This document shows positions 1,459-20,202 of a stretch of DNA of 24,951 nt, in pieces (positions within the stretch are counted from its first letter, which is position 1; each line of letters begins with the position of its first letter). The notes under the pieces are model-generated. The model saw only the letters and a list, made by a program, of their open reading frames with translations. It was not told the origin of the DNA and made no database searches. Where the stretch lies: IMG/VR virus record IMGVR_UViG_2897333091_000001. One strand, 5' to 3'. Origin of the DNA: a virus. Taxonomy: Duplodnaviria; Heunggongvirae; Uroviricota; Caudoviricetes. Position numbers and translations under genes: made by a program.

Positions 1459-2622
1459 TTACACATCATTAGTACCTTCCTTATTTCTTGACTGGGACAA
1501 ATTTGGGACCGATGGGTTCAGAATCGAGTCTATTTGCCGTGCGTGTTCGGTAAGGTGATTAGGTGCGAGGTGAGCATATCGACGAACCATTTCGATAGAC
1601 TCCCAGCCTCCCATTTCCTGTAACACTGATAACGGGACTCCGGCTTGAACCAGCCAACTTGCCCAGGTGTGTCTCAAGTCGTGAAATCTGAAATCATCAA
1701 TACCTGCTCGTCTCAGCGCCGCTTTCCAGGCTGTGTTTGCGTCATACCGCATCTTCCTGACTGTTGGCGCTTTCGTTCCGTCTGGTTTGGTACAGCTTTC
1801 CTTATACACAAATACCCAACGGTGATGATTCCCGATTTGTTTTTTCAATACGCGACATGCAGTATCATTCAGCGCAACGCCAATTGCGCGGTTTGATTTA
1901 CTCTCTTCCGGGTTTATCCATGCCACCCGGCGCTGCATGTCTATTTGTTGCCATTCAAGGTTGATGATGTTCGAGCGTCTTAAGCCTGTTGCAAGTGCAA
2001 ATTCAACAACAGACTTTAATGGCTCCGGACATTCATCAATCAGCCTTTGTGCTTCATGAGGCTCCAGCCAGCGGATCCGTTTATTCTTTGGTTGAGGCAC
2101 TTTAATAATTGGTGCCTTATCCAGCATTTTCCATTCACGCTCTGCGGCTCTTAGCAGGGCCTTTATAAATGAAAGATGCGTAGCCTTCGTTGCAACGGAC
2201 GCTGGTTTTGGCGTGTATTCTGGAACAGGTTTCCCTTTTTTTCTGCATGCTTCTGCCCTGAGTTTCCAGTTTTCCTCATGACGCCGGTTCGTCATTTTCT
2301 GCATTGCTGAATAAATTTTTGATTCAGTAATGTCTCTTAGTTGCATTCCTGCGAAATGTTGAAGCCAGAATCCGATCCGGCTTTTGTCATCGTCCAGTGA
2401 TTTTTTATGTGCTTTCTCTTCAAGCCACCTGACACACGCTTCCTCGAACGTTATATCAGGAATTTCACCAAGTTTGCTGACCCGCCATGCTTCAGCCTTT
2501 AGCTTGTCATGGAGTTCTGTCGCCTGCCTTTTGTCCTTTGTTCCAAGAGACTGTTTAAATCTTTTACCGTTCGGCAATGTGAAACTGGCGTACCATATTT
2601 CACCTCTGCGGAAGAGTGACAT
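1459..2622 (-). CDS. int: Tyrosine recombinase, phage P22-type integrase
   Basis: 387-aa ORF starting [21 protein letters not shown].. with C-terminal catalytic region ..[40 protein letters not shown] (R..H..R..Y); near-identical to recalled P22 Int; stop lies 14 bp from the tRNA 3' end. Confidence 0.92.
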
Positions 2623-3273: not shown

Positions 3274-3373
3274 NNNNNNNNNNNNNNNNNNNNNNNNNNN
3301 NNNNNNNNNNNNNNNNNNNNNNNNNNNNNNNNNNNNNNNNNNNNNNNNNNNNNNNNNNNNNNNNNNNNNNNNN
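3274..3373. other. Scaffold gap (100 N), unknown true length
   Basis: Run of exactly 100 N; flanking sequences do not overlap; coding frames on both strands run into it. Confidence 0.95.
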
Positions 3374-3374
3374 C

Positions 3375-3548
3375 GAATACATAAACAGTAAGCAATGGCC
3401 TGGTAAAGCGGCGATTGGTCGCCTGAAAGGTGAGGAACTGGCGCAATATAATTTGTGGCTGGATTATCTGGACGCACTGGAACTGGTCGATACTTCCGGT
3501 ACGCCAGATATTGAATGGCCTACGCCTCCGGCAGTTCAGGCCAGATGA
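3375..3548 (+). CDS. tfa: Tail fibre assembly protein, C-terminal fragment (N-terminus in gap)
   Basis: ..NLWLDYLDALELVDTSGTPDIEWPTPPAVQAR* parallels the C-terminus of the minus-strand Tfa (..LDYIDAVTATDTSTAPDVIWPELPEA*); the two genes converge and overlap at 3520..3548, as in Pin/Gin invertible segments. Confidence 0.6.
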   Translation, partial: EYINSKQWPGKAAIGRLKGEELAQYNLWLDYLDALELVDTSGTPDIEWPTPPAVQAR

Positions 3549-4113
3549 CGTCCGGCGCTGTGCTGGTATCTGTTGCCGTCACCGCGTCAATATAATCCAG
3601 CACAGCGTTAAGTCGGGTGTTTTCTGGCTGCGTCAGCTTCCGCCCGGCCTGTAATTTCAGTTGAATCAGACTGATGGAAGCCATTGCAGCATCAATCAGC
3701 GACTGGCGCTGTGCTTCTGCAGCTTCTACTGCGACGCTATGCTGTGCCTCGGTATCCGTCACCCATTTCTCACCATCCCATTTATCGTATGGCGTTAACG
3801 GTGAAAGCGTGACATAACCGTCTTTGATGGCACCGATATAATCCACTGTAACAGCTGCGCCATTTTCAGTTGAGTAAACGGTCTCATTGCGATGGTCTTC
3901 TTCATGGCTCCATCCCTTACCCGTAAATACTGCCACTTTTCCCGGAATGTTTTCGCCCGGGTCAATACCAGTGGAACAGGCGGGCATACTTACGCCAGTA
4001 TTAATATATTCATCAGACCAGCCGGTATATTCATACGTTACTGCATTATAATAAAAACAACGCATATCGCCCGGCACTGTAGCCAGCCCATTTTCATCAA
4101 AAACAGGCTTCAT
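3520..4113 (-). CDS. tfa: Tail fibre assembly protein (TfaE-like)
   Basis: 197-aa ORF MKPVFDENGLATVPGDMRCFYYNAVTYEYTGWSDEYINTGVSMPACSTGIDPGE.., recognised as the e14/lambdoid Tfa family; start overlaps the stop of the upstream tail-fibre segment. Confidence 0.85.
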   Translation of the reverse strand: MKPVFDENGLATVPGDMRCFYYNAVTYEYTGWSDEYINTGVSMPACSTGIDPGENIPGKVAVFTGKGWSHEEDHRNETVYSTENGAAVTVDYIGAIKDGYVTLSPLTPYDKWDGEKWVTDTEAQHSVAVEAAEAQRQSLIDAAMASISLIQLKLQAGRKLTQPENTRLNAVLDYIDAVTATDTSTAPDVIWPELPEA

Positions 4114-4685
4114 TATTTAGCCCTCACCAGAAAGTTAAATGCAATATTTCGTGGACGGGTTTCTGTACCTACATTTCCACTAATTTCACCATAACGTTTA
4201 ACACTACGAGAGCTAAGAGCTCGTAGTGAGGAAGGCACCTTAAGACCGGGTTCGTCCGTTTTAACTATTCCCCCGTCACCATATGTAGCCAGTATTCCTG
4301 GGTTTACTCCTTCCCGTGCACTTCCTGCGGCAAGCCCGTCCCCCGTCCACAATTCCATATTGTGTGCATGATCCATAATTGTGTGTGATTGCCCTGAAAG
4401 TAGGGTACGTCCGACATCAATCCCGCGCCCATCATCCCAGATACGAATGAAATCACCGCGTGCGTCAGGTAATGCCAGCGCCGGAAACACTTTCGCCAGC
4501 ACAGGGTAATCAGTGGCAGAGAATTTCGCGCCGTTGAACTTCAAAAACACCATACCGGACCAGCTATCGATTACGGTATCTGGCATTGCAGCGGACGGCC
4601 AGAAGAACGGAACGCCAATAGCTGGAGCTCCTTCTCCCAAACCAACGTTTATGAAAATGCAGAAATAACGAGCAAATGGCATCAT
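4113..4685 (-). CDS. stf: Tail fibre C-terminal variable segment inside the invertible region; no independent N-terminus in this orientation
   Basis: 190-codon frame ending directly upstream of tfa; its 5' end runs through the putative crossover site, so it is probably expressed only when fused to a constant tail-fibre N-terminus after inversion; the annotated ATG at 4685 is probably not a real start. Confidence 0.65.
   Translation of the reverse strand: MMPFARYFCIFINVGLGEGAPAIGVPFFWPSAAMPDTVIDSWSGMVFLKFNGAKFSATDYPVLAKVFPALALPDARGDFIRIWDDGRGIDVGRTLLSGQSHTIMDHAHNMELWTGDGLAAGSAREGVNPGILATYGDGGIVKTDEPGLKVPSSLRALSSRSVKRYGEISGNVGTETRPRNIAFNFLVRAK
4632..4657. other. Candidate Pin/Gin-type crossover site (imperfect 26-bp dyad)
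   Basis: TTCTCCCAAACCAACGTTTATGAAAA resembles recalled gix/hix sites (TTCCTGTAAACCGAGGTTTTGGATAA / TTCTTGAAAACCAAGGTTTTTGATAA); 55 bp upstream of pin, at the 5' edge of the stf segment. Confidence 0.5.
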
Positions 4686-4711
4686 TCCTGCTTTTGTCAG
4701 GGGGATCTACC

Positions 4712-5266
4712 ATGCTTATTGGCTATGTACGCGTATCAACAAATGACCAGAACACAGATCTACAACGTAATGCGCTGAACTGTGCAGGATGCGAGCTGAT
4801 TTTTGAAGACAAGATAAGCGGTACAAAGTCCGAAAGGCCTGGACTGAAAAAACTGCTCAGGACATTATCGGCAGGTGATACGCTGGTGGTCTGGAAACTG
4901 GACCGACTGGGGCGCAGTATGCGGCATCTGGTCATTCTGGTTGAGGAGTTGCGCGAACGTGGCGTTAATTTTCGCAGCCTGACGGATGCTATTGATACCA
5001 GCACACCGATGGGGCGTTTTTTCTTTCATGTGATGGGTGCCCTGGCTGAAATGGAACGAGAACTGATTGTTGAACGAACAAAAGCTGGACTGGAAGCTGC
5101 TCGCGCACAGGGACGAATTGGTGGACGTCGTCCCAAACTTACACCAGAACAATGGGCGCAGGCCGGGCGATTAATTGCATCAGGCGTTCCTCGCCAGAAG
5201 GTGGCTATTATTTATGATGTTGGTGTGTCAACTTTGTATAAGAGGTTTCCAGCCAGGGTTATATAA
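4712..5266 (+). CDS. pin: Serine recombinase, DNA invertase Pin (Hin/Gin/Cin family)
   Basis: 184 aa from the ATG at 4712 (MLIGYVRVSTNDQNTDLQRNALN.. with catalytic Ser in YVRVS and C-terminal HTH ..GVSTLYKRFPA); AGGGGGA SD; near-identical to recalled e14 Pin. The upstream extension from 4676 was rejected. Confidence 0.93.
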   Translation: MLIGYVRVSTNDQNTDLQRNALNCAGCELIFEDKISGTKSERPGLKKLLRTLSAGDTLVVWKLDRLGRSMRHLVILVEELRERGVNFRSLTDAIDTSTPMGRFFFHVMGALAEMERELIVERTKAGLEAARAQGRIGGRRPKLTPEQWAQAGRLIASGVPRQKVAIIYDVGVSTLYKRFPARVI

Positions 5267-5390
5267 AACCGCAGACATGTCGTATGCAGGAGGTGTCGCG
5301 GTTGGCTGGTGAACTTTTGATAGTGCGAGTATTGAATGATTTCCAGCCGTTATCGATTTTACGTATTTTTTGCATGAGATGATTTGAACG
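5266..5390 (+). repeat. Direct repeat copy 1 (about 125 bp), begins at the pin stop codon
   Basis: About 90% identical to 8564..8690 by eye (AAACCGCAG..GTCGTATGCA..GGCTGGTGAACTT..GATAGTGCGAGTATTGAATGATTTCCAGCCGTTA.CGATTTTACGTATTTTTTG.ATGAGA). Confidence 0.75.
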
Positions 5391-5622
5391 CCCTAGCACC
5401 AACCGTTCATGATTGCACGCCACTGTCTCTAGAACTGCTATGTGCATGAAGCCGCTGTTCAAACTAAGAATTTATATGGCACTAACAGAAAAATGTTACA
5501 TATATGTTGAGCTTTAACGCAACATAGACATGTTCTATAGTTTGTGTCTCACCACCAGTTGAAAAAAAACGAAAATAGATTAACAATGTTCAGAAGAAAC
5601 CTTCATAATAGAAGAGGTATAA

Positions 5623-5877
5623 ATGGGTAAGATTATTCGGTGGATGCTTTTTTTTGTCGGATTATTTTCCGTTGCATATTCAATATATAAATATCAACAA
5701 TCTCCGCAGAGTTTATTTTACATAATCGGTGCTATAGGAACACTTTTATCTGCTACATGTGGTTTACTTGAGATAAAAAGCAAGAAATCGAATGGCAGTA
5801 TAACTGCTGGTGACAACTCAAATATCGTTGTCATTAATGGTTCAGAAAACACATCAAAAATAAAAAATAGAGGGTGA
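5623..5877 (+). CDS. Small membrane protein (84 aa, two predicted TM helices), function unknown
   Basis: ATG with AGAGG SD 5 nt upstream; hydrophobic stretches WMLFFVGLFSVAYSIY and LFYIIGAIGTLLSATCGLL followed by a polar Ser/Asn-rich tail; very AT-rich; stop sits 2 nt before the next gene's start. Confidence 0.55.
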   Translation: MGKIIRWMLFFVGLFSVAYSIYKYQQSPQSLFYIIGAIGTLLSATCGLLEIKSKKSNGSITAGDNSNIVVINGSENTSKIKNRG

Positions 5878-5879
5878 TT

Positions 5880-6815
5880 ATGTTTGATAAAGAGGTTAAC
5901 TTAGGAGACAACTCAAACGTAGTAAAAACAGAAGGGAATAACAACACAACAATAATAAATAATTTTGATGAGAAGTTTATAGGTCACGTTGTAAGATCCA
6001 TGCTTTATGAAAGTATGCCTTCCTTTCAAGAAGAAGCTAGAAAAAAGATAATTGCGTCAACTGATGAGTACGTTAGAGAGCTAATATCTGAGTTAGTAAT
6101 TCAAAAAACAGATGCAGATACATTAAACCAAAAACTATCAACGCCTGACGTTCAATACTCTCTTTTTGAATCAGCTAAATGTTTTGCAAAGAATCCAGAA
6201 AGAACAGAAAAATCAACTCTGTTAAATTTAGTTGTAAAAAAAATAAATGAATTGGATGGAGATCATGAAGAGCTTTCCTCTATCGATCTGGCAATAAACG
6301 TCGCTACAAAACTTAGCGTAAAGCAAATAAGGTATATAGCTTTAATACACTATATTAAAGATATTGTAAAAATATCACAAGATAGTGCCGGCGCTTATTG
6401 CATAATAGATCCTTCAAAAGATACAACAGAAGAAGTTGACGATTTCTTTTTATTCCCAAATGATATAAAAAGGAACAAACAGGATGTTTATGACCTTTAT
6501 ATCGATCTATATAACAATCAAATGGATGTTGTATTTAAAGATGAAGAGATTGGCCCAATTGATTATAGTATGCTTATAGCGTTGGGTTGTATCATTCAAC
6601 CTGCATTCCCTCAGCCAACATTTGTACAAAATGTAAAGAAAAGAACAGGATTAGATTTAAACGACAGCGAACAAAAATTAAAGCTATCGACATTCATTGA
6701 GAAAATAGAAAAAGCTATAGAGATAGATTCTGTCGATTATATAGTATTAACTACGGTTGGTAGACAAATAGCTAACGCCTATATATCAACAAGAATGAGA
6801 TTAGTTAACTTATAA
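5880..6815 (+). CDS. Hypothetical protein (311 aa from the ATG at 5880), no recognisable family
   Basis: Long ORF in strongly AT-rich DNA; AGAGGG SD 6 nt before the ATG at 5880 (the ORF track starts at GTG 5874); followed by a terminator hairpin; N-terminus shares a GDNSN(I/V)V motif with the tail of the upstream peptide. Confidence 0.65.
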   Translation: MFDKEVNLGDNSNVVKTEGNNNTTIINNFDEKFIGHVVRSMLYESMPSFQEEARKKIIASTDEYVRELISELVIQKTDADTLNQKLSTPDVQYSLFESAKCFAKNPERTEKSTLLNLVVKKINELDGDHEELSSIDLAINVATKLSVKQIRYIALIHYIKDIVKISQDSAGAYCIIDPSKDTTEEVDDFFLFPNDIKRNKQDVYDLYIDLYNNQMDVVFKDEEIGPIDYSMLIALGCIIQPAFPQPTFVQNVKKRTGLDLNDSEQKLKLSTFIEKIEKAIEIDSVDYIVLTTVGRQIANAYISTRMRLVNL

Positions 6816-6836
6816 ATATCTCATATTTCTTCATCC

Positions 6837-6871
6837 AAGGTGGTGGCTTCATCATCCACCGCCTTCTTTTC
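6837..6871 (+). terminator. Rho-independent terminator candidate after the two-gene module
   Basis: AAGGTGGTGG-cttcatcat-CCACCGCCTT stem-loop followed by a T-rich run (CTTTTCT). Confidence 0.5.
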
Positions 6872-7190
6872 TGCTCTTAAGATTAGTGAACAAACCACTC
6901 GTCAGCAAACTCCCAAGTATCTTTCAGAGTCTCCTGAACAAAAGCCTTAGCAGAATCCTTATCTGCGGTGTACGTAACAGTGATGTACGTAACAGGAAAA
7001 TCATCGCTATGGTAGCTTTGACGTTCATCCCCATACCATAAAATATCAAGAGATTACGACTCATTTCCCCATGGCTCTTCACCAACCAACAGTTCTATCA
7101 ACATAAGATGTAAACTCATAAACTAAACAAGATAAAAAAATTAACAGAATTTTGTTGATTTCATGTCTGTGGAGTGTTAACTTAAAATGA

Positions 7191-7210
7191 GACCTGAAGT
7201 ACTGAAGGTC
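7191..7210. promoter_or_regulatory. Imperfect 20-bp palindrome upstream of the XRE gene (candidate operator)
   Basis: GACCTGAAGTACTGAAGGTC (16/20 self-complementary) located 24 bp upstream of the XRE start codon. Confidence 0.4.
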
Positions 7211-7233
7211 TTTGACACACTGGAGAAGCAACT

Positions 7234-7593
7234 ATGTTAACGCCGTTTGGTAAGACAGTAAGAAAAATGCGCATAGACTTAGGGCTTACGCTTAAAAGCA
7301 TGGCTGAGGCTATGGGCATGACCTCGTCTTATCTTTCAGCGATCGAAACTGGTAAAAGGGCAGTCACTAAGCCCGTGCTTGATAGCATCATTAGCTATTT
7401 TAATGCGGATGAAAAACAAAAAGAAAAGCTTATCAGTGCAGCTCGTGACTCTCAGCAGTCAGTAGAGATCAGCTTGTCAGGTAAGAATGGCCACGCTCGT
7501 GAAGTCGCAATTGCGTTCGCTCGTAGTTTTGATGAATTAAATGAAGAAGACTTCCGTAATTTACGACAGATTTTGAATCGAAAACAGCAGTAG
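7234..7593 (+). CDS. XRE-family helix-turn-helix transcriptional regulator
   Basis: 119 aa; N-terminal HTH signature ..LGLTLKSMAEAMGMTSSYLSAIETGKRAVTKPVLDSI..; GGAGA SD; immediately followed by the metallopeptidase gene. Confidence 0.8.
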   Translation: MLTPFGKTVRKMRIDLGLTLKSMAEAMGMTSSYLSAIETGKRAVTKPVLDSIISYFNADEKQKEKLISAARDSQQSVEISLSGKNGHAREVAIAFARSFDELNEEDFRNLRQILNRKQQ

Positions 7594-7601
7594 GAGGCGG
7601 C

Positions 7602-8123
7602 TTGAGCGGACAAGATTATCGTGTACCTCCGCAGAATCGTGAATCAATACGTTCGATCGTCACATCTCTGCGGAGCGCATTTGGTATTACTGGGCTTAAA
7701 TTCCCTGTAATGGAGGTAATTGAGTTCGCATTGCCTCAGTTGATCCCGGATTTTGAGTTCCACATTGGTGGTATGAAAGAAATGGGAGAAACGCATGGTC
7801 TTACGTACCCACAGGAACATTTATTGATTCTGCGCGAAGACATTTACGAAGGCGCTTTGAATGGGGTAGGGCGAGATAGGATGACTGCCGCACATGAATT
7901 GGGTCATCTTCTTATGCACAGGAACATCGCATTTGCTCGTTCTGCCCCAGGGGTAAAAATCCGCCCTTTTGAGAGTAGTGAATGGCAAGCTAAATGTTTT
8001 AGTGGTGAGTTATTAGTGCCAGCTATGCATGCCAGTGTTTTAAAAGGTATGACGGCTGAGGATGTTGCTAAGGCATGCGGAGTTTCATTAGTGGCAGCGC
8101 GTTATCAGCTAGACAGAATGTAA
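7602..8123 (+). CDS. ImmA/IrrE-family (DUF955-like) zinc metallopeptidase domain protein
   Basis: 173 aa with HExxH motif (AAHELGHLLMH); TTG start 4 nt after an AGGAGG that overlaps the XRE stop, so the exact start is uncertain; gene pairing is typical of ImmR/ImmA or CapH/CapP regulator pairs. Confidence 0.78.
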   Translation: MSGQDYRVPPQNRESIRSIVTSLRSAFGITGLKFPVMEVIEFALPQLIPDFEFHIGGMKEMGETHGLTYPQEHLLILREDIYEGALNGVGRDRMTAAHELGHLLMHRNIAFARSAPGVKIRPFESSEWQAKCFSGELLVPAMHASVLKGMTAEDVAKACGVSLVAARYQLDRM

Positions 8124-8126
8124 AAA

Positions 8127-8162
8127 CCCCTTGCTTGGCGCCAACCAGTGCAAGGGGCTTTA
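8127..8162 (+). terminator. Hairpin terminator candidate (weak U tract)
   Basis: CCCCTTGC-15 nt-GCAAGGGG stem directly after the peptidase stop, followed by CTTTA. Confidence 0.4.
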
Positions 8163-8280
8163 GGTGATGAATCCAAGAGGCATCACCACCGTGAACAGCT
8201 TCGATAGACAGCCTGAAATTAACACCTTCAGGGAAGATGTTCAAGGGAAAAATCTCTCTTGGTAAGGAGGTGTTTTATGA

Positions 8281-8430
8281 ATGGGTTTGAAATCAATTGC
8301 TTCAAAAGCGGCGCCCAAAGGGTTCCGTTGGGTTTTCTGCCGTTACCGCAAGGTGCGTGGGAAATCAAAAAAAGTCCTTGATGCTCATGATTACGGGTAC
8401 GAGGCGTGGGCATTTTTAGTGCGCTGCTAA
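8281..8430 (+). CDS. Small basic ORF (49 aa), hypothetical
   Basis: Strong AAGGAGG SD (8264..8270); ATG at 8281 (alternative ATG at 8277 gives a 34-aa product in another frame); MGLKSIASKAAPKGFRWVFCRYRKVRGKSKK..; ends 15 bp before a strong terminator. Confidence 0.35.
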   Translation: MGLKSIASKAAPKGFRWVFCRYRKVRGKSKKVLDAHDYGYEAWAFLVRC

Positions 8431-8444
8431 GGGTTAGTATTTAA

Positions 8445-8466
8445 GGCACCTGCGGGTGCCTTTTTT
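8445..8466 (+). terminator. Rho-independent terminator
   Basis: GGCACC-tgcg-GGTGCC stem-loop followed by TTTTTT. Confidence 0.65.
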
Positions 8467-8563
8467 GTATCCTCTGACCCGATTGGTGTCTTGCTGAGCC
8501 TGATAACTACCAATTTTTGTTATTACTATTCTACTATCGCTCAATCATGATTGGCGGGAGTTG

Positions 8564-8690
8564 AAACCGCAGGCTCGTCGTATGCAAGAACGTGCTGCGG
8601 CTGGCTGGTGAACTTCCGATAGTGCGAGTATTGAATGATTTCCAGCCGTTACCGATTTTACGTATTTTTTGTATGAGAGGATTTACACCT
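8564..8690 (+). repeat. Direct repeat copy 2 (about 125 bp)
   Basis: Aligns along its length with 5266..5390, differing by scattered substitutions. Confidence 0.75.
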
Positions 8691-8930
8691 CCTCCCACCG
8701 ATCCTCCATGACTTTACGTCACTAAATTTTAACAGAGCCGGGAGCACTGCCGGAGCCTGCCTAATCATAATTCGCCCCCAAACTGGACGTACAGCGCTTT
8801 GTGTCCAGGTAGTGGGAAAATGAAGAAAGGACTGTCTGCCAGCAGTTCTGCGACCGCACCGGGCGCAGAGTATGCCAGCAGATTTCCGACTGGCCGCGCA
8901 GCTGCGATGGCACATCTGTCAGCAGGACGA

Positions 8931-9009
8931 AAAGTACTGAATGGTAGCGGCCAAACGGTGGTTTGAAAATGACCGGGCGACACGGTATTACGGGACTTTT
9001 ACAGTACTG
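8931..9009. repeat. 79-bp repeat unit A with AGTACTG terminal inverted repeats
   Basis: AAAGTACTGAATGGTAGCGGCCAAACGGT...GGCGACACGGTATTACGGGACTTTTACAGTACTG; near-identical copy at 9321..9397. Confidence 0.7.
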
Positions 9010-9320
9010 ATAATGAGGAAATGTATATGTATCAGCTTATAAAACTATATGGCGGGCAGATGGCCCCAAATCCATCCGAATACCGAATTTTGTTTCAGGG
9101 CAATTATCTCGCCGCTATATGGATTTATGCTTAGAGTAACAACCATGTAAATAATTGATAATTATAGATTGTTTAGCATGGTTCGCACTCTGAAATGCCG
9201 GGTGCGAGGTTTGGCGAAGATGGCCGATATTCGAGTGTTTTGCTCTTATATCGACGAAATAAGACAGGCGTGGCGGGATTTTTTCTGCGATTCCTGGGAA
9301 AAAAATGAATAAAAACAGTG

Positions 9321-9397
9321 AAAGTACTGAATGGTAGCGGCCAAACGGTACATAAAATGTCCGGGCGACACGGTATTACGGGACTTTTACAGTACTG
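9321..9397. repeat. 77-bp repeat unit B (copy of unit A)
   Basis: Same ends and core as 8931..9009, with a short divergent middle (GGTTTGAAAATGA vs ACATAAAATGT). Confidence 0.7.
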
Positions 9398-9733
9398 GTT
9401 ATGTGTAAAGATGCCAGCTGCGGGCCGTGTTCACCGGCGCACCGAGCGTAAAGTATGCCAGCAGATTTCAGGCTTGCCGCGCAGCTGCAGCATGCGGAAT
9501 GCCAGCACTGGACAGAATCACTGCACCGTCTATGAACTGGCGCCCCTTCATGCCCTGACCGGAGAGGCTTGGATGTACTCATGGAAGACAAAATGCCTAT
9601 TAATGAGGTAAGTATGCAAATTGAGTTAGGGCGAATGAGTGGGAAATAAAAATTACATATGTAGTGATTGCAAACCTGCTACATGAAGGTAACTGCAAAA
9701 AGCATATTACCTTCCTTGTAGCTATAGATAAGG

Positions 9734-11104
9734 TTATTTCTCTTTCTCAGGCAAAACGCGGTCTATAATTTCTTTATTAATTTTAGATGTCGTATTAATC
9801 AATTCGTTTATTTTATCAATTTCCATTTGATGTGACTTCTTGTCTATGGAGCTAAGCGGTGATCTTAATACTGATTTAAGAATGTTATCCATGAATAATG
9901 ATGATTTATCGGTATCGTTCTTATTGATTTCCTGCTTGAAAGATACAAGAGTTTCAGATAGCAATTTTTTATGTGCATAATCTTCACTGATGTTGTTTTG
10001 TTTAACATATTGTATGGCGCTAAATACAAAGAAGCCTATTAATACTGGAATCATTGAGAATCGAGCAAAGAATAATAATAATAAGTTGGGCTCTTGGCCT
10101 GTAGGAGGATAAGAACTAACTTCATTCATCTTGACAAGCATATAAACCACGAATGCTATACATACGATTGCAGCTCCTATTGATACAAAGGCCCAAAACC
10201 TTTTGTTTTTATTTGCGGTTTTGTATGCATCTCTAAAATGTCTTGATAGCCTATATGTTCCAGATAAATTCAATGCGGAATTAGCTTTAGAGTTCAATTC
10301 TTTCGCATTATTTATTTCACCAGATATAATGGTTTTTAATTCTTTAATTTCAGTTTTTTTATCAAGGAGATTTTTAATCTCACTGGCAGACTCAGCAGAT
10401 TTTTTAATGATTTCGTCTTGCATTGATTTGTTTGTATTAACGATATTGTTTAATGTTTCTTCAACAGTTCTTAGCTTTTCACTAGATGATTCTATACCAA
10501 TAAGTGCATCTCTGCTCTTTTTTAGTATGAATTCTATTTCAGAACCGGCGCTTTCAAATTTTTTCGTCTCGGCGTTCAAGTCCGTAACAAGTTTAATGAT
10601 TTTATCATGAGAGTTTGCATTTCTTACTGCTAACTCTCTGATTTGAGTTGCACTTATTTCAATTTCATTTTTCAGTTCTACCACTTTGGCTATTTCATTA
10701 GATGCTTGATTTTTGAACATAGCTAAGGTGTTAGGTTGATTATGCGTGCCTTGGATAAACTTAGATATTCTTGAATACCTAATTAAATCATCATTGATAG
10801 TGATAATGTTCCGATAAATATCATCTGAAAAAATATCAGAAATCATAGATGATATGTAGTTGTCCGTAAGTTTTAGTAGTGAAAAGATATTTTCTTTTTC
10901 TTCTTTTGTAAAGAATTCAGCATGTGCGAAAGGATGGAATTTATTGATTATGGAAATATGTTCGGACATATTTCCCAAAAGTTTGCTTCTTCTGTTGGCA
11001 ACGGTTATGTATTTAGGGTCACTTATGCTTTTTAGCATTCTTATGATTTTTTCAAAATTACCAAAAATAGATGCTGTGGTTGATGAAAATTCATTCAGAG
11101 TCAT
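9734..11104 (-). CDS. Orphan 456-aa protein: long helical/coiled-coil-like N-terminal region, two predicted TM helices, about 90-aa C-terminal tail; function unknown
   Basis: Uninterrupted ORF in very AT-rich DNA; K/E/I/N-rich N-terminal 290 aa; hydrophobic segments FWAFVSIGAAIVCIAFVVYMLV and LLLLFFARFSMIPVLIGFFVFSAIQYV; no neighbouring partner gene on the same strand. Confidence 0.7.
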   Translation of the reverse strand: MTLNEFSSTTASIFGNFEKIIRMLKSISDPKYITVANRRSKLLGNMSEHISIINKFHPFAHAEFFTKEEKENIFSLLKLTDNYISSMISDIFSDDIYRNIITINDDLIRYSRISKFIQGTHNQPNTLAMFKNQASNEIAKVVELKNEIEISATQIRELAVRNANSHDKIIKLVTDLNAETKKFESAGSEIEFILKKSRDALIGIESSSEKLRTVEETLNNIVNTNKSMQDEIIKKSAESASEIKNLLDKKTEIKELKTIISGEINNAKELNSKANSALNLSGTYRLSRHFRDAYKTANKNKRFWAFVSIGAAIVCIAFVVYMLVKMNEVSSYPPTGQEPNLLLLFFARFSMIPVLIGFFVFSAIQYVKQNNISEDYAHKKLLSETLVSFKQEINKNDTDKSSLFMDNILKSVLRSPLSSIDKKSHQMEIDKINELINTTSKINKEIIDRVLPEKEK

Positions 11105-12087
11105 ACTTTATCCATTTAGAAGTTGTGTATTGCAGTGTGTATTACAAAATGTTTGAAAGAAAAACATTTTGAGGAAAAACACTCTGATAATCAAGGAAGT
11201 ATTTTCAAGAGGTTGCATGGTGATCCATTATCCTTCTTCGCCAGCGGGGGATTAACCCCAGTCATGGCTTTCCGGTTAACCGGATATCATTGGGTTCAAT
11301 GCAGTACAAAAAATTGCCCGAAGCAACACTGAAATACCCTGTCACTCACCACACGTACCGCAGGCGACCCTGCCGGTGAGCCATTCTGATTGCGCAGTCT
11401 GTCCGGCGAGCCACTAACTCACTGGAAGAGAAAACAACATATGGCCGCGCAGCGGCGCGGGGATGCCCCTCGCAGGAAAAGTGAGTGACTACCCCGTCGA
11501 CGGCATTCAGCGCCTCACACAGCTGAAAACGGGACCGGTATACGGGCTGGCTAAAACAGGTCTGTTCATACCACGCTCCCCCCTGCCGAACGGGAACGCA
11601 CACTGTTCAACATCGCCCGTATCGATGTCATGTGTTCCGTCACGCATTCTGCCGATGCCAGCGCTGAGACTCGTCTTTCAGGAGGGGCCGCTGCAGGCCG
11701 AGATATGCGGTTGCCCGTCCCTTGCCCTTTTCAGCATTGACAACATCCAGCCTGTCGGGAGCTGCCGCATTGGGTTAGACCTGTGTAAGTCGATGCTAAC
11801 GTCTAACCATTTAACTTCCGCTTGTTGCTCATAACAGGCATTCACTTCAGTTACGGCAGAAAGGTATGCATGCTGGGTGGGGAAAGTGTGAAGGAAAAGA
11901 AGACTGCTGCGCCGTTTGTCGTCACGTTTATCTTCATTGGCTATGCAAGTCGTAATACAAGGTGGGACAAAACTGAGACACATAAGGCCTCGCAATGGCT
12001 TGCAAGGCTTTACATGTTTTGATGTGGTGGGACGTGTGAGCGCAGTGTTGATGGGGTAATGCTTTGAATTAGAAGCGGATTCTTATA

Positions 12088-12133
12088 ATTCGTAATGCGA
12101 AGGTCGTAGGTTCGACTCCTATTATCGGCACCA
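12088..12133 (+). repeat. Perfect 46-bp direct copy of the thrW 3' end (att core; right junction of element 1, left junction of element 2)
   Basis: ATTCGTAATGCGAAGGTCGTAGGTTCGACTCCTATTATCGGCACCA is identical to 1399..1444; flanks diverge immediately after one additional T. Confidence 0.9.
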
Positions 12134-12295
12134 TCTCAACTTCCCCAAACGTCCGTATTCATCCATAAGCACCCTGATTTATAACGATTTTACCGCTTTT
12201 TAGTCCGTCGTTGTCCGTGACCATCCAGTAGAATCCGATACAGAATGTGTATAGGATTGTGTATATGTTCCTGTTCGGTCTTGGAGCCTATACAC

Positions 12296-13471
12296 ATGCC
12301 TTTAAACGATATGCAGATTCGCCGCGCTAAGCCTGAAGATAAACCCTATACGCTTGGGGATGGGCAAGGCTTGTCATTGCTTATAGAACCTAATGGAAGC
12401 AAGAGCTGGCGGTTCCGCTATCGCTACGCCGGTAAACCCAAGATGATCTCGCTTGGCGTTTACCCAACGATCACCCTTGCCGATGCTCGTTCCCGTCGTG
12501 ATGAAGCTCGAAAACTTGTGGCAGAAGGAAAGAACCCTAGTGAGGTTCGAAAAGAGCAAAAGCTGGCTCTGCAAACAGAGTCAGAGAACGCCTTCGAAAA
12601 GATCGCCAGAGAGTGGCATCAACTTAAATCTGCTAAATGGTCAGCTGGATACGCATCAGACATCATGGAAGCGTTTAAGAACGACATTTTTCCTTATGTT
12701 GGAACAAGGCCTGTGGGAGAGATTAAACCGCTAGAGCTGCTGAACGTACTGCGTAAAATTGAGAAACGTGGTGCGTTGGAGAAAATGCGTAAAGTGCGGC
12801 AGCGTTGCTCCGAGGTGTTTCGCTACGCAATTGCAACAGGTAGGGCGGAGTACAATCCTGCTGCGGATCTCTCCAGCGCTCTCGAAGTGCATCAATCCAA
12901 TCATTTCCCGTTCTTAAAAGCTGATGAGATACCCGAATTTCTGCGTGCCTTAGAGAGTTACACCGGGAGTAAAATTGTCCAGATAGCAACGAAATTACTG
13001 ATGATTACGGGCGTGAGAACCATCGAATTACGCGCGGCATTATGGCAAGAATTTGATCTGGATAACGCTATTTGGGAAATTCCTGCTGAAAGGATGAAAA
13101 TGCGCAGGCCGCATCTTGTGCCATTGTCTACTCAGGCGTTAGATTTACTCAATGAACTCAAGACAATGACAGGCAACTATCGTTATGTTTTTCCTGGGCG
13201 AAATGATCCGAGTAAGCCAATGAGTGAGGCCGCTATCAATCAGCTTATAAAGCGACTTGGATACGGTGGCAGGCTTACAGGTCATGGATTTAGGCATATG
13301 ATGTCAACTATTTTACATGATGCTGGCTTTAATTCTCAATATATTGAATTACAGCTCGCTCACGTTGATAGTAATAGAATTCGCGGTACATATAATCATG
13401 CAACATTCATTGAAGAAAGAAGGAAAATGTTGAACTTTTTCTCTTCAACGTTATTTTTAAGGAAAATGTAA
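12296..13471 (+). CDS. int: Tyrosine recombinase, P4-type integrase
   Basis: 391 aa from the ATG at 12296 (MPLNDMQIRRAKPEDKPYTLGDGQGLSLLIEPNGSKSWRFRYRYAGK.. arm-binding N-terminus; C-terminal ..HGFRHMMSTILHDAGF..LAHVDSNRIRGTYNHA); sits next to the tRNA-derived att copy. Confidence 0.88.
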   Translation: MPLNDMQIRRAKPEDKPYTLGDGQGLSLLIEPNGSKSWRFRYRYAGKPKMISLGVYPTITLADARSRRDEARKLVAEGKNPSEVRKEQKLALQTESENAFEKIAREWHQLKSAKWSAGYASDIMEAFKNDIFPYVGTRPVGEIKPLELLNVLRKIEKRGALEKMRKVRQRCSEVFRYAIATGRAEYNPAADLSSALEVHQSNHFPFLKADEIPEFLRALESYTGSKIVQIATKLLMITGVRTIELRAALWQEFDLDNAIWEIPAERMKMRRPHLVPLSTQALDLLNELKTMTGNYRYVFPGRNDPSKPMSEAAINQLIKRLGYGGRLTGHGFRHMMSTILHDAGFNSQYIELQLAHVDSNRIRGTYNHATFIEERRKMLNFFSSTLFLRKM

Positions 13472-15288
13472 ATGAGAATTGAAACTGTTTATATTAAAGG
13501 ATTCAGGAATTACTGTGATGCTGTTATTAATTTTAATGAAACTAATTTGATTATAGGTGCAAATGATGTTGGAAAGACCAACCTATTATATGCCATTCGA
13601 TTATTACTTGATAAAAGTTTATCTGAATTAGATCTAGAACNNNNNNNNNNNNNNNNNNNNNNNNNNNNNNNNNNNNNNNNNNNNNNNNNNNNNNNNNNNN
13701 NNNNNNNNNNNNNNNNNNNNNNNNNNNNNNNNNNNNNNNNGAATTAGATCTAGAACCAAAAAGCAATGACTTTCATGTAAATTCGACAGGTGAACAGGTT
13801 GAAAATATAGAAATCACTATCAAGTTTACAGATGTTAGTGAAGATGCTGTAATATCTAAATTAGGAGGGTATGTTAGCGATGAAGGGGAAACATACATTA
13901 AGTATCTTGCTTCATCATTAACTATGGATTACAAGATATTACTTAGTCATGAACATAACAATTTTGATGAGGTTCCTAATAGATTTTACTTAAAGTGTTT
14001 AAGTCTAAGGTATATAAATTCGCAAAGAGATCTTGAAAAATACATTAAAATTGAAAAGAAGCATCTTTTAAGATTGGCGCAAGAAGTTCGTAGTGAAAAG
14101 GATACTGAAAATGATGGGGCGGTTTTTACTGAATTAAATAAGCTACTTACTGAAGTAAATGAAAAAGTTAAAGGAATAAGTTATGTTGCATCAGCAACAG
14201 AAGAGCTTAACGAGGAACTTAGAAAGTTATCCTATACTCATGATAGATTAACTGTTCAACTTGATACTGGTGCAATAGGGATTGACCAGTTTATAGAGAA
14301 ATTAGAATTAAGTGCGAATACAAATGGGAAGAAACTAATGCTTGGTGGCGATGGGTTTAATAACCAAATCCTTCTTGCGTTATGGAAAGCAAAAAGTGTT
14401 CGCGAGCATGATGTTGAAAGTGAAGTAGTGATCTATTGTATAGAGGAACCGGAAGCACATCTATTTCCTCACCAGCAAAGAAAATTGGCGGCCTATTTAA
14501 TCGATAAACTTCCAGGCCAAGCAATCGTTACAAGCCACTCACCCCAAATTGCAGTGAATTTTAAACCTGATTCAATCATAAAACTATACTATGATGATGG
14601 AGAGACTCTAGCCGCAAGTAATGGATGTTCTGATTGTATTAGCTCTGCATGGGATGGAATGGGCTACCGGATGAGTATTATTCCTGCTGAGGCATTTTTT
14701 GCTAACGTGGTTTTTTTGGTCGAGGGACCATCTGAGGTGATTTTTTACACTGAATTAGCAAAAGCATTAAGTATTGATCTTGATTATTATAACATCAGCA
14801 TTCTTTCTGTTGATGGTATCCAATTTGAAGTTTATAGAAAAATATTAACAGCTCTAAATATTAATTGGATCGTAAGAACAGACAATGATGCTTCAAAAGT
14901 ACCTCATAAGAATGAATGGCAATATGCTGGTGTAAATAGGGCGTTAGCACTGTGTGGAGAGAATAAAGAACCAAACTCAAGTATTCCTATAGATAGTAAA
15001 GCTTTGCATACTAAGTGGGGAACCATTTCACCAATAATAAATCCTAACGGCGTTTATATATCTTTTTTTGATCTTGAAGGAGATCTTGCTAATGACTTTT
15101 CGAAGCATGTTCTTGATTATGCAAGTAAGGATAATCTAGATGATGCCGCTGATTATTTGAGAGGAAAAAAAGCTATACGTATGCGTGAGTTAATTAAAGA
15201 GAAAAAAGCTTTTTTAACTGAACTGAAGAGCAAAGATATAGCCAGACCTCTAATACATGCACTGAAAATTGCTAGAGGTGAATTATGA
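13472..15288 (+). CDS. gajA: Gabija GajA-like OLD-family ATPase/Toprim endonuclease (interrupted by scaffold gap 13641..13740)
   Basis: N-terminus ..IKGFRNY..NLIIGANDVGKTNLLYAIRLLLDK (P-loop), later VIYCIEEPEAHLFPHQQRKL (Walker-B-like) and VVFLVEGPSEVIFY..IVRTDNDASK (Toprim), matching recalled GajA blocks; frame stays open from 13741 to 15288; starts directly after the int stop. Confidence 0.85.
13641..13740. other. Scaffold gap (100 N); flanks share a 16-bp overlap
   Basis: GAATTAGATCTAGAAC occurs at 13625..13640 and again at 13741..13756, in the gajA reading frame (ELDLE) on both sides. Confidence 0.9.
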
Positions 15289-16907
15289 AGCTAACTAAGG
15301 AACAGTTAGATGCAATTGATTACGAAGGTAATCTGGTTATAACTGCATGCCCAGGAAGTGGTAAAACAACAATACTCGTCCATAAGATTGCTGCCTGTTT
15401 ATCCCATTCCAAGGATTATCAGGGAGTTGTTGCGTTATCATATACGAATAAATCCAGCGAGGAGCTAAAAGCCAGATGTAGAAAATTGGGAGCAGAGTTA
15501 AATTCTAGCTTCTTTGGTACTATTGATAAGTTTTTCATTAACGAAATAATATTACCTTTTGTAAGGCAAGTATGGGGCAGAAACGAAAGCGCTCTCGAAG
15601 TAGTAAAGTATATAGATCTTTCTCAAGAATTAAAAGATAAGACAAATAAGTACTTTGACCGAGTGGATTTTTATTCTAATACTTCATTTGAGGGCATGGG
15701 TTCTCTGAGGGATATTTATTTAAAGGGGATGTTGATTTTAGACTTCCTTCCTCACTTGGCTTTTTATATAGTTAGAACATCATATTCTTGTCAGCGGTAT
15801 TTAATGGCAAAGTATATTGGTTTTTTTGTCGATGAGTATCAGGATACCGGTTATTTTACTCATCAGGTTTTCAAGTTCATACCAACGCTAGGGATGCCTC
15901 TTATTATCGTTGGTGATTTGGATCAATCAATTTATTTGTATTCTCACCGCAGTTCGGATTCACTAAAAGATTTCATGAATGATAGTGGTTTCTGTCATAA
16001 GGAAATTACAGTAAATCACAGATGTCACCCATCTATAGTAAATTACGCCAATAGAATTAAAGATTTTGAATGTCAACTAGCTCCGTGTGATGAGATTTTT
16101 GTTTATAGAAAATGTGTTGATGGCAATCAAATTGATATAGCTAAATGGATTGGTGAAATTCTTGATAATGTAAAAAATAAATTTTCAATATCTGATAATA
16201 AGGAGATTGCTATATTGGTAAGAAGCAATGCTTGCGCGGAGCTAGTTTCTGATAATTTAGTTGTTTCTAATAGGGCTTATTTGGATAATGATTTAACAAA
16301 GGCTGGTGGTAAGGTTTCTGGTCTTGTTAATGATTTATTATGTTACAGGTATAACTTAAATAAAACTGCTCAGTCTATTTTGGAGGGGGTTTTGGGAAGC
16401 AGTGTCAAAAGGAGCGAGGCTACTCGTATCCGTAAGGCTATTAAGCAGGTTAGAAGTGTTACAGATGCCTTTCTTATTGACGTAATAAATAAAATTGTAG
16501 TAACTCTTTTAGGGACTGAAATCGAGCAGCATCATAAGTCCGCTCTTTCAGAGATATTAGTTACTCCGAGGATGCAAAATAATTATTTGGATGTTAGAAG
16601 TGATGAAGTACAAATAATGACGTTACATAAGTCTAAAGGTCTTGAGTTTGACTTTGTTTTTCATTTGGATCTGTATGATTGGATTTTGCCTAAAAGAGTT
16701 TTCATAGAAGGAAGCTATGATGTTGTATTCGAAAATGAACAGCAATGCATAAATCTTCATTACGTAGGAATTACACGAGCAAGAAAAGGCATTATGCTAA
16801 TGCATTCTACGAAACGGTATAATGGTTCAGGTGATCTTAAGAACGGGGCTCCATCTCAATTTCTTTTGAAACCTGGGTTAGATGGCCTTTATAAAAAAAT
16901 AAATTAA
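15285..16907 (+). CDS. gajB: Gabija GajB-like UvrD/PcrA-type SF1 helicase
   Basis: 540 aa; LDAIDYEGNLVITACPGSGKTTILVHKI (motif I), FFVDEYQDTGY (motif II), LIIVGDLDQSIY, VNHRC, MTLHKSKGLEFDFVF (motif V/VI-like), matching recalled GajB blocks; 4-nt ATGA overlap with gajA. Confidence 0.88.
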   Translation: MKLTKEQLDAIDYEGNLVITACPGSGKTTILVHKIAACLSHSKDYQGVVALSYTNKSSEELKARCRKLGAELNSSFFGTIDKFFINEIILPFVRQVWGRNESALEVVKYIDLSQELKDKTNKYFDRVDFYSNTSFEGMGSLRDIYLKGMLILDFLPHLAFYIVRTSYSCQRYLMAKYIGFFVDEYQDTGYFTHQVFKFIPTLGMPLIIVGDLDQSIYLYSHRSSDSLKDFMNDSGFCHKEITVNHRCHPSIVNYANRIKDFECQLAPCDEIFVYRKCVDGNQIDIAKWIGEILDNVKNKFSISDNKEIAILVRSNACAELVSDNLVVSNRAYLDNDLTKAGGKVSGLVNDLLCYRYNLNKTAQSILEGVLGSSVKRSEATRIRKAIKQVRSVTDAFLIDVINKIVVTLLGTEIEQHHKSALSEILVTPRMQNNYLDVRSDEVQIMTLHKSKGLEFDFVFHLDLYDWILPKRVFIEGSYDVVFENEQQCINLHYVGITRARKGIMLMHSTKRYNGSGDLKNGAPSQFLLKPGLDGLYKKIN

Positions 16908-19804: not shown

Positions 19805-20202
19805 TGATGCCTGTTCTGCAAAAACTTCCTTTTTCTGGCTTGCCTTTTTCCGGCATTTGCGGATATAGTTTTTCCGCTGCCGCAAAATCGGCAGCCGGGC
19901 GTGGAAACCCGAGTATGTTATCGGCGACATATGACGCGCCATGCGTCTTTTTTTGTGTCGCAATCAACGCCACAGAGCGCCAGATTATGGTGTGGTGTGT
20001 GGTCAGTCGAGCAAATGGCACTCCGTGCATTCTGCCCGCGTCCGCTCATTATACCGCAGAGTCAATGGTAGCTCAGGCGGGGCAGCCTCCGGGCTGGCCG
20101 GTTTCCGATAACGCCGGTATTTCCACCCCCGTCTGGGCTATCGCCATCGAGCGTGGAAACTCCGGCGATAGCGTCATTTACGCTGTTATCGGAGGTTGCC
20201 TT

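Follow-up and report, generated by a model that had tools for sequence, protein, structure and literature searches.

PD-T2-1, a two-gene anti-phage defence, beside a probably independent XRE/ImmA cassette in an E. coli-type thrW prophage island

What is the AT-rich two-gene unit within a prophage island in the virus record IMGVR_UViG_2897333091_000001 (Caudoviricetes), and is it controlled by the regulator genes that follow it on the same strand? The window, that is the whole stretch of 24,951 nucleotides (nt) at its full length, contains at the studied positions 5391-8123 the genes for a protein of 84 and one of 311 amino acids (aa), here termed A and B, followed by those for an XRE-family helix-turn-helix (HTH) protein and an ImmA/IrrE-type metallopeptidase. 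An earlier note, made from the raw sequence, had taken these four genes for a candidate uncharacterised defence or toxin system in which the regulators might gate A and B. Judged by sequence identity, A and B are PD-T2-1, a published and experimentally validated anti-phage defence that is thus already known. The region very probably consists of two independent prophage cargo cassettes, one carrying PD-T2-1 (5446-6875) and one carrying XRE, ImmA and a small gene termed orf49 (6985-8472), which came to adjoin each other by recombination within a dinI-like gene. This degree of confidence applies to the explanation as a whole, comprising the identity of the pair, the mechanism inferred for A and B, and the independence of the cassettes.

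Identity of the two-gene pair

The operon is made up of the following elements.

5514-5609, plus strand: promoter-like region with sigma-70-like hexamer pairs at 5514-5541, 5559-5587 and 5580-5609.
5623-5877, plus strand: PD-T2-1A, a membrane peptide of 84 aa with two predicted hydrophobic helices and a cytoplasmic Asn/Gly-rich tail, ITAGDNSNIVVINGSENTSKI.
5880-6815, plus strand: PD-T2-1B, a predicted cytoplasmic protein of 311 aa belonging to the LPO_1073/Vpar_1526 family.

A is identical over all 84 residues to the product of a gene in E. coli locus L001 that is annotated as WP_075861856.1 (PD-T2-1A of strain ECOR03), and B agrees with WP_087894771.1 (PD-T2-1B) at 305 of 311 positions (98.1%; six substitutions). 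E. coli E600003 also has the pair, flanked there by pinE on one side and by a dinI-like gene beside prfC on the other, and RefSeq annotates it as a hypothetical protein (WP_075861856.1) and an 'LPO_1073/Vpar_1526 family protein' (WP_087894771.1). A full-text search with the accession led to one paper, the preprint of Nagy, Gersabeck, Conte and Whiteley on E. coli ECOR03 (bioRxiv, July 2025, 10.1101/2025.07.02.662641), which names WP_075861856.1 as ECOR03 PD-T2-1A and the adjoining gene as PD-T2-1B. There, the two-gene operon under its native promoter protected strain MG1655 more than 100-fold against T2 and T6 and roughly 10-fold against T4 and T5; growth inhibition of ECOR03 by T7 gp17 was relieved by transposon insertions in the operon, and co-expression of PD-T2-1 with T7 gp17 or with T2 gp37, gp34 or gp12 led to growth arrest, the triggers being active when expressed from plasmids inside the cell (10.1101/2025.07.02.662641). 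The mechanism was described as unknown, and no informative homology was found by the authors (10.1101/2025.07.02.662641).

The defence role suggested in the earlier note is thereby borne out, having been shown for an identical A and a 98%-identical B, but the system had ceased to be uncharacterised with its publication in July 2025; likewise, the statement that nothing in the module resembles a named defence system does not survive the match to PD-T2-1. The window thus represents a further occurrence of a published system and not a discovery, and the earlier note was right in picking a real defence system from raw sequence. Its description of the gene layout was accurate as well. The stop codon of A ends at 5877 and the ATG of B starts at 5880, leaving 2 nt in between, with GAGG located 7-10 nt 5' of the ATG, and the pair resides in AT-rich DNA, with a GC content of 0.316-0.354 across 5501-7000 compared with 0.47-0.52 in the pin/tail-fibre flank. 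Kyte-Doolittle analysis assigns two hydrophobic segments to A (about residues 3-22 and 30-49), in line with the two transmembrane helices proposed before, and these correspond to two helices forming a hairpin in the AlphaFold2 (AF2) model of a natural fusion homologue. Among the promoter-like hexamer pairs, that at 5580-5609 matches 10 of 12 positions; these are consensus matches only, in a number not above that in shuffled sequence.

The view that B belongs to no recognisable family had to be given up: it reaches 85.2 bits with the NCBIfam model NF045477 (cut-off 45), and all of its close homologues carry the precomputed Pfam assignment PF28206 (Vpar_1526). In PADLOC-DB v2.0.0, which PD-T2-1 postdates, no family matched A or B at E<=1; a scan of both proteins with a Pfam copy in which PF28206 is not included gave nothing at E<=1; PHROGs returned only phrog_19542 (function unknown; 3e-7); a sequence search of the PDB found no match to A or B, and B had no match among 50,697 phage records.

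PD-T2-1 (5623-6815), a tail-fibre-triggered system, directly adjoins the prophage's own invertible tail-fibre/Pin segment (3520-5266), and the same is seen in E. coli E600003.

The junction between the PD-T2-1 and XRE/ImmA cassettes

Whether the downstream genes belong to the same system depends on the elements that border and separate the two parts, listed here in order.

5263-5445, unstranded: copy 1 of a conserved non-coding repeat, R; left border of the PD-T2-1 cassette.
6837-6874, plus strand: terminator-like hairpin with a 10-bp G+C-rich stem followed by UUCUUUUCU, 22 nt past the stop of B.
6886-6984, minus strand: 3' remnant of a dinI-like gene, comprising its last 33 codons (tblastn with DinI-like proteins, 82-85% identity, E ~1e-15).
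7234-7593, plus strand: XRE-family HTH protein, 119 aa (Pfam HTH_31, 9.1e-11, and HTH_3, 1.9e-10; PADLOC capH, 3.6e-10).
7602-8123, plus strand: ImmA/IrrE-type M78 metallopeptidase, 173 aa, with the motif HELGH (Pfam Peptidase_M78, 2.4e-9; PADLOC capP, 5.8e-11).
8281-8430, plus strand: orf49, encoding a basic protein of 49 aa, MGLKSIASKAAPKGFRWVFCRYRKVRGKSKKVLDAHDYGYEAWAFLVRC; found with XRE/ImmA in all five other loci fetched.
8443-8472, plus strand: intrinsic-terminator-like site (8-bp stem with five G-C pairs, then a T run) that closes the XRE-ImmA-orf49 unit.
8562-8723, unstranded: copy 2 of R; right border of the XRE/ImmA cassette, where the next cargo cassette begins.

The XRE HTH protein and the HExxH peptidase are thus what they had been taken for, and on the strand of A and B. 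Three observations would fit a single system of four genes, with XRE repressor and ImmA protease gating a toxic A/B pair upon infection or DNA damage after the model of CapH/CapP or ImmR/ImmA: the capH/capP matches of the regulators, their position 420 nt downstream of B, and a 19-nt inverted match (79%) between the two promoter regions (5514-5532 / 7162-7180). When an operator shared by the A and XRE promoters was looked for, this match was the only one found, and it could not be told from chance, dozens of other chance pairs within these 3.1 kb being at least as good. Genome comparison speaks against such gating. The PD-T2-1 operon occurs in four of 5426 complete E. coli genomes (99.2% identity) and the XRE/ImmA segment in 13, and in none of the 5426 do they occur together; tblastn across all fetched loci also found A+B and XRE+ImmA+orf49 to be mutually exclusive. 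The A+B loci checked in other taxa lie on a P4-like satellite of Atlantibacter/Kluyvera, on a plasmid fragment, on a phage-like contig of Metabacillus and on further assemblies, among these two loci beside hemS/ABC-transporter genes and one beside hipBA, and neither an M78 peptidase nor a homologue of the window's XRE/ImmA was found within about 5-6 kb of them. A cross-genome check of the kind proposed in the earlier note thus returned no case of co-occurrence at the four PD-T2-1 loci, the 13 XRE/ImmA loci or the A+B loci of other taxa that were checked. Furthermore, the two genes of PD-T2-1 suffice in MG1655 without the regulators (10.1101/2025.07.02.662641), genomes that lack XRE have a PD-T2-1 promoter region of about 97-99% identity, and the regulators in the window lie downstream of the terminator-like hairpin and of the dinI remnant that marks a recombination junction. 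We therefore consider the four-gene system highly improbable: XRE/ImmA do not appear to gate PD-T2-1, and adjacency to such a pair in a mosaic prophage end is no evidence of regulation.

How the two cassettes came together can be read from the gene orders elsewhere. The E. coli genomes with PD-T2-1 show the arrangement pin - R - A - B - dinI - prfC; those with XRE/ImmA have either tail-fibre genes - R - dinI remnant - XRE - ImmA - orf49 - R - dinI - prfC, or a copy of about 90% identity between yejO and a prophage integrase. Blastn matches of the L001 type stop at 6980 and those of the L002/L004 type start at 6882, both breakpoints falling in the dinI remnant, so that the order in the window is the one expected from dinI recombination between two prophage ends. 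Repeat R, which forms a direct repeat (5288-5424 / 8587-8723, 82% identity; copies of about 160 nt are 82-87% identical), was matched by blastn to the R segments of loci L001, L002, L004 and L006. Many lambdoid prophages have it at their ends, beside dinI-like genes, and it brackets the cargo cassettes; of the 3136 E. coli records returned by the genome search, most have a match to R or dinI only. R looks like a recombination hotspot for cassette exchange. An Rfam search of 5263-8723 found no known RNA. The hairpin behind B has a predicted folding energy of -15.6 kcal/mol (z = -3.6), equalled in 0 of 200 shuffles, and the XRE/ImmA part has a GC content of 0.41-0.45, between the values of the PD-T2-1 part and the flank. 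It is the lack of co-occurrence, the breakpoints in the dinI remnant, the hairpin after B, the terminator after orf49 and the differing GC content that argue for two independent cassettes.

The second cassette (6985-8472) would then be a self-contained unit of XRE repressor, ImmA-type protease and orf49 with its own promoter region and terminator. The XRE protein is 100% identical in L002, L004 and L006, and homologues of the ImmA protein are present in temperate phages of Escherichia, Ralstonia and Burkholderia. Orf49 has no Pfam or PDB match; compared with a variant of about 90% identity (L023), it shows 16 nt differences but only two amino acid changes, which marks it as a real gene under purifying selection, and it may be cargo controlled by XRE/ImmA. 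ImmA-type peptidases of known function cleave a partner repressor (ImmR/ImmA, CapH/CapP, IrrE/DdrO). By analogy, XRE/ImmA most likely works like ImmR/ImmA or CapH/CapP, with a stress-activated protease cleaving the repressor, and its target would be its own operon or something elsewhere rather than PD-T2-1. Xre-COG2856 pairs have also been predicted to be toxin-antitoxin systems, and the cassette is always compact and self-contained, located at prophage ends with no adjoining effector operon, while its XRE protein weakly matches antitoxin HTH models. That XRE/ImmA(/orf49) is an addiction module of this predicted type instead of a stress-responsive switch nevertheless seems rather unlikely to us, given the repressor cleavage established for the characterized ImmA-type peptidases and the conservation of orf49, which suggests a regulated cargo gene.

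In L002 (5102-7778; E. coli 510016), the XRE/ImmA cassette adjoins an operon encoding a reverse transcriptase and a SLATT-domain protein that is broken by IS1, so that here, too, defence cargo is piled up at the same prophage end.

A proposed sensor and effector, and the Vpar_1526 family

The profile search and structure prediction advised in the earlier note yielded the family assignment of B (NF045477) and a confident AF2 model (predicted local distance difference test, pLDDT, 81.6; predicted template-modelling score, pTM, 0.77), but no solved structural relative of the predicted fold was found. Three parts can be told apart in B: an N-terminal motif that is disordered (residues 1-27), a helical domain that is conserved (about 31-161) and a C-terminal alpha/beta domain that varies (about 164-306). 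An exhaustive profile search with B returned 656 cluster representatives at E<=1e-3, the Vpar_1526/PF28206 family thus comprising at least 656 clusters at 50% identity; as most of them align only over about residues 1-165, the helical N-terminal domain is the conserved core and the C-terminal domain the variable part. In the literature, a search for 'LPO_1073' found no papers and 'Vpar_1526' turned up in nothing but a paper on a Veillonella proteome, where it is a locus tag.

Conservation of the partner is just as informative. A profile search of genome contigs for wider loci returned only two, and besides the arrangement shared by the window and L001, six kinds of A+B neighbourhood were available (L007-L012/L024, L013/L014, L016, L018, L019-L021 and L025; L013/L014 and L019-L021 have the same flanking genes). 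Every neighbourhood that could be read has a small membrane open reading frame (ORF) of 61-85 aa directly upstream of B, down to a B identity of about 20% and including one Firmicute. Some relatives combine the two functions in one chain. P0011 is a single-chain A-B fusion, which stems from one 1.6-kb contig and possibly from a sequencing frameshift; in the window the frame of B is closed by TAG at 5868-5870, so that frameshifting could join the two only if the shift took place in the last 7 nt of A. P0022, P0070 and P0135 have an N-terminal transmembrane helix, KEW[VIL]FSG[IL]G[VI], which has its match in the free-standing A protein of Metabacillus. In others A is replaced, by a Cap5-like HNH nuclease in P0132 (PDB 9om4, 9e-9; 7rwm, 2.9e-5), by DUF4062 in P0140 (35 bits; cut-off 24.7) and by a region with a weak Mrr_cat match in P0106.

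Toxic N-terminal partners that are exchanged while the Vpar_1526 domain stays constant usually mark a sensor that is coupled to an effector, and we infer that sensing falls to B and the effector role, at the membrane, to A. B would act in the cytoplasm; its conserved helical domain would couple to the killing module, and specificity would perhaps be set by the variable C-terminal domain. A, a two-helix membrane hairpin, would disturb the inner membrane and in this way bring about the death or arrest of the cell (abortive infection). The production of tail fibres might be sensed directly or via a host intermediate, upon which A would disturb the membrane, according to a Rex-like abortive-infection logic. 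The roles could also be reversed, with A merely serving as a membrane anchor or envelope-facing sensor and B as a toxic effector of unrecognised activity: nearly invariant polar positions in B (e.g., K85, P89-D90, Q92, K100 and D136) and a fold without known relative leave room for an enzyme, and tail fibres act at the envelope. We judge this reversal improbable, since it is the partner position that holds interchangeable toxic modules (HNH, DUF4062, transmembrane helices) next to a constant Vpar_1526 domain, and the triggers work from plasmid expression inside the cell.

The two halves of the proposed sensor-effector pair would be held together through a motif common to the A tail and the B N-terminus. 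This Asn/Gly-rich motif reads AGDNSNIVVINGS and LGDNSNVVKTEGN in E. coli, S.ANQAGRDI in A and B alike in another clade, and VGNNSTGIQVGRD and VGDNSNSLQVGGD in Metabacillus. Alignments of cognate A tails and B N-termini score 50-65, compared with shuffle means of 18-27, the observed score being reached by 0 of 1000 shuffles for each of five pairs. The type of motif is lineage-specific, A and B changing in step. It may tether B to the cytoplasmic tail of A, such that A and B would be the split version of single-chain proteins of the type transmembrane segment-linker-Vpar_1526. Simple sequence mimicry of T7 gp17 by the motif found no support: in local alignments to 25 T7 proteins, a comparison confined to T7, gp17 was without excess over shuffles (z ~0.1).

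Taken further, PD-T2-1 could be the split membrane-effector form of a broad, so far unrecognised effector-swapping immune-sensor family, Vpar_1526/PF28206, a proposal that we regard as a serious possibility though a tentative one. In such a family, coupling and sensing would fall to the conserved helical domain as its core, and the N-terminal killing module would be interchangeable, being a membrane peptide, a Cap5-like HNH domain, DUF4062 or possibly, in view of the weak Mrr_cat match, a restriction-endonuclease-like domain. The co-varying motif would be the zipper that rejoins the halves, and may be the site at which the tail-fibre signal acts. As leads towards the mechanism of PD-T2-1, the analysis offers a defined family, partner conservation across phyla, natural fusions, the replacement of A by nuclease or DUF4062 domains, and a shared motif that can be swapped.

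Several points weigh against the explanation given here. The assignment of sensor and effector is drawn solely from architecture, and in the AF2 model of the natural fusion the motif region comes out as disordered (pLDDT <50). In the preprint, AlphaFold gave no confident interaction between A and B or with the triggers (interface predicted template-modelling score, ipTM, <=0.5), and A was predicted to have one transmembrane segment, not two (10.1101/2025.07.02.662641). The accession of B is printed there one digit short (WP_08789477.1). Finally, the comparative data leave room for a local, recent co-option of XRE/ImmA in this one genome.

Island setting and comparison with known systems

The setting is an E. 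coli-type proA-thrW region with a 10.7-kb island between direct repeats of the thrW 3' end, and the location of the pair in prophage cargo space beside the tail-fibre/pin region, as read in the earlier note, is confirmed within this island. Its further features are as follows.

1399-1450 and 12088-12139: direct repeats of the thrW 3' end, the bounds of the island.
1459-2622, minus strand: integrase, within the island.
3520-4685: tail-fibre assembly genes, within the island.
4676-5266: Pin-type recombinase, within the island.

The island also carries tail-fibre genes and a series of cargo cassettes. In two other E. coli genomes, the match to a third cargo block (8596-11955) lies elsewhere, at the end of an ssrA-side prophage. 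It contains an AT-rich ORF of 456 aa (9734-11104, minus strand), annotated as hypothetical in those genomes, with a long coiled-coil region and C-terminal hydrophobic segments; its matches are weak and of the coiled-coil type only (PADLOC DruC, 7e-5; ZorA, 2e-3), and it is possibly a further defence or membrane protein. Between this ORF and the XRE/ImmA cassette, short direct repeats (29-56 nt, 88-100% identical, 388-583 nt apart) occupy an apparently non-coding stretch at 8855-9488. At the second thrW repeat lies a P4-like satellite (12245-16907) with Gabija between its integrase and psu, GajA being an OLD-type ATPase/TOPRIM protein and GajB UvrD-like; the integrase-psu interval is a known defence hotspot of P4. 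A C4 antisense RNA and isrK are located at 19863-20148. Two masked runs of 100 N interrupt the window, one at 3274-3373, which breaks ORFs to the left of the tail-fibre genes, and one at 13641-13740, inside or just 5' of the 5' part of the GajA-like gene.

Compared with PD-T2-1 of ECOR03, the pair in the window has the same gene order and spacing, an A of 100% and a B of 98.1% identity, and likewise an Enterobacteriaceae prophage/satellite cargo position; it differs in residing in a thrW island beside XRE/ImmA, an arrangement found in 0 of 5426 complete E. coli genomes. Whereas the preprint describes one transmembrane segment and no informative homology, we find two hydrophobic helices and a defined family (PF28206/NF045477), to which the motif shared by A tail and B N-terminus and the fusions to other effector domains are added here.

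Some Vpar_1526 members resemble Cap5 (HNH-SAVED) in that their N-terminal domain is an HNH domain with a match to that of Cap5, and in the layout of N-terminal effector and C-terminal sensor; unlike Cap5, they would have a Vpar_1526 sensor in place of SAVED, no sign of nucleotide signalling is seen, and in the window the effector position is taken by a separate membrane peptide. RexA/RexB of phage lambda would be alike in being a prophage-borne pair of genes for abortive infection, one for a cytoplasmic sensor and one for a small membrane protein. In the lambda system the small membrane protein, RexB, has four transmembrane segments and collapses the membrane potential; no sequence or fold similarity to PD-T2-1 was detected, and PD-T2-1A, with two predicted helices, would act on the membrane. 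As for the second cassette, it shares with ImmR/ImmA of ICEBs1 and with CapH/CapP of cyclic-oligonucleotide-based anti-phage signalling systems (CBASS) the succession of an XRE HTH protein and an M78 HExxH peptidase, including capH/capP matches at about 1e-10, but pairs of the window type have no conserved linkage to a defence operon and stand alone with a 49-aa ORF at prophage ends.

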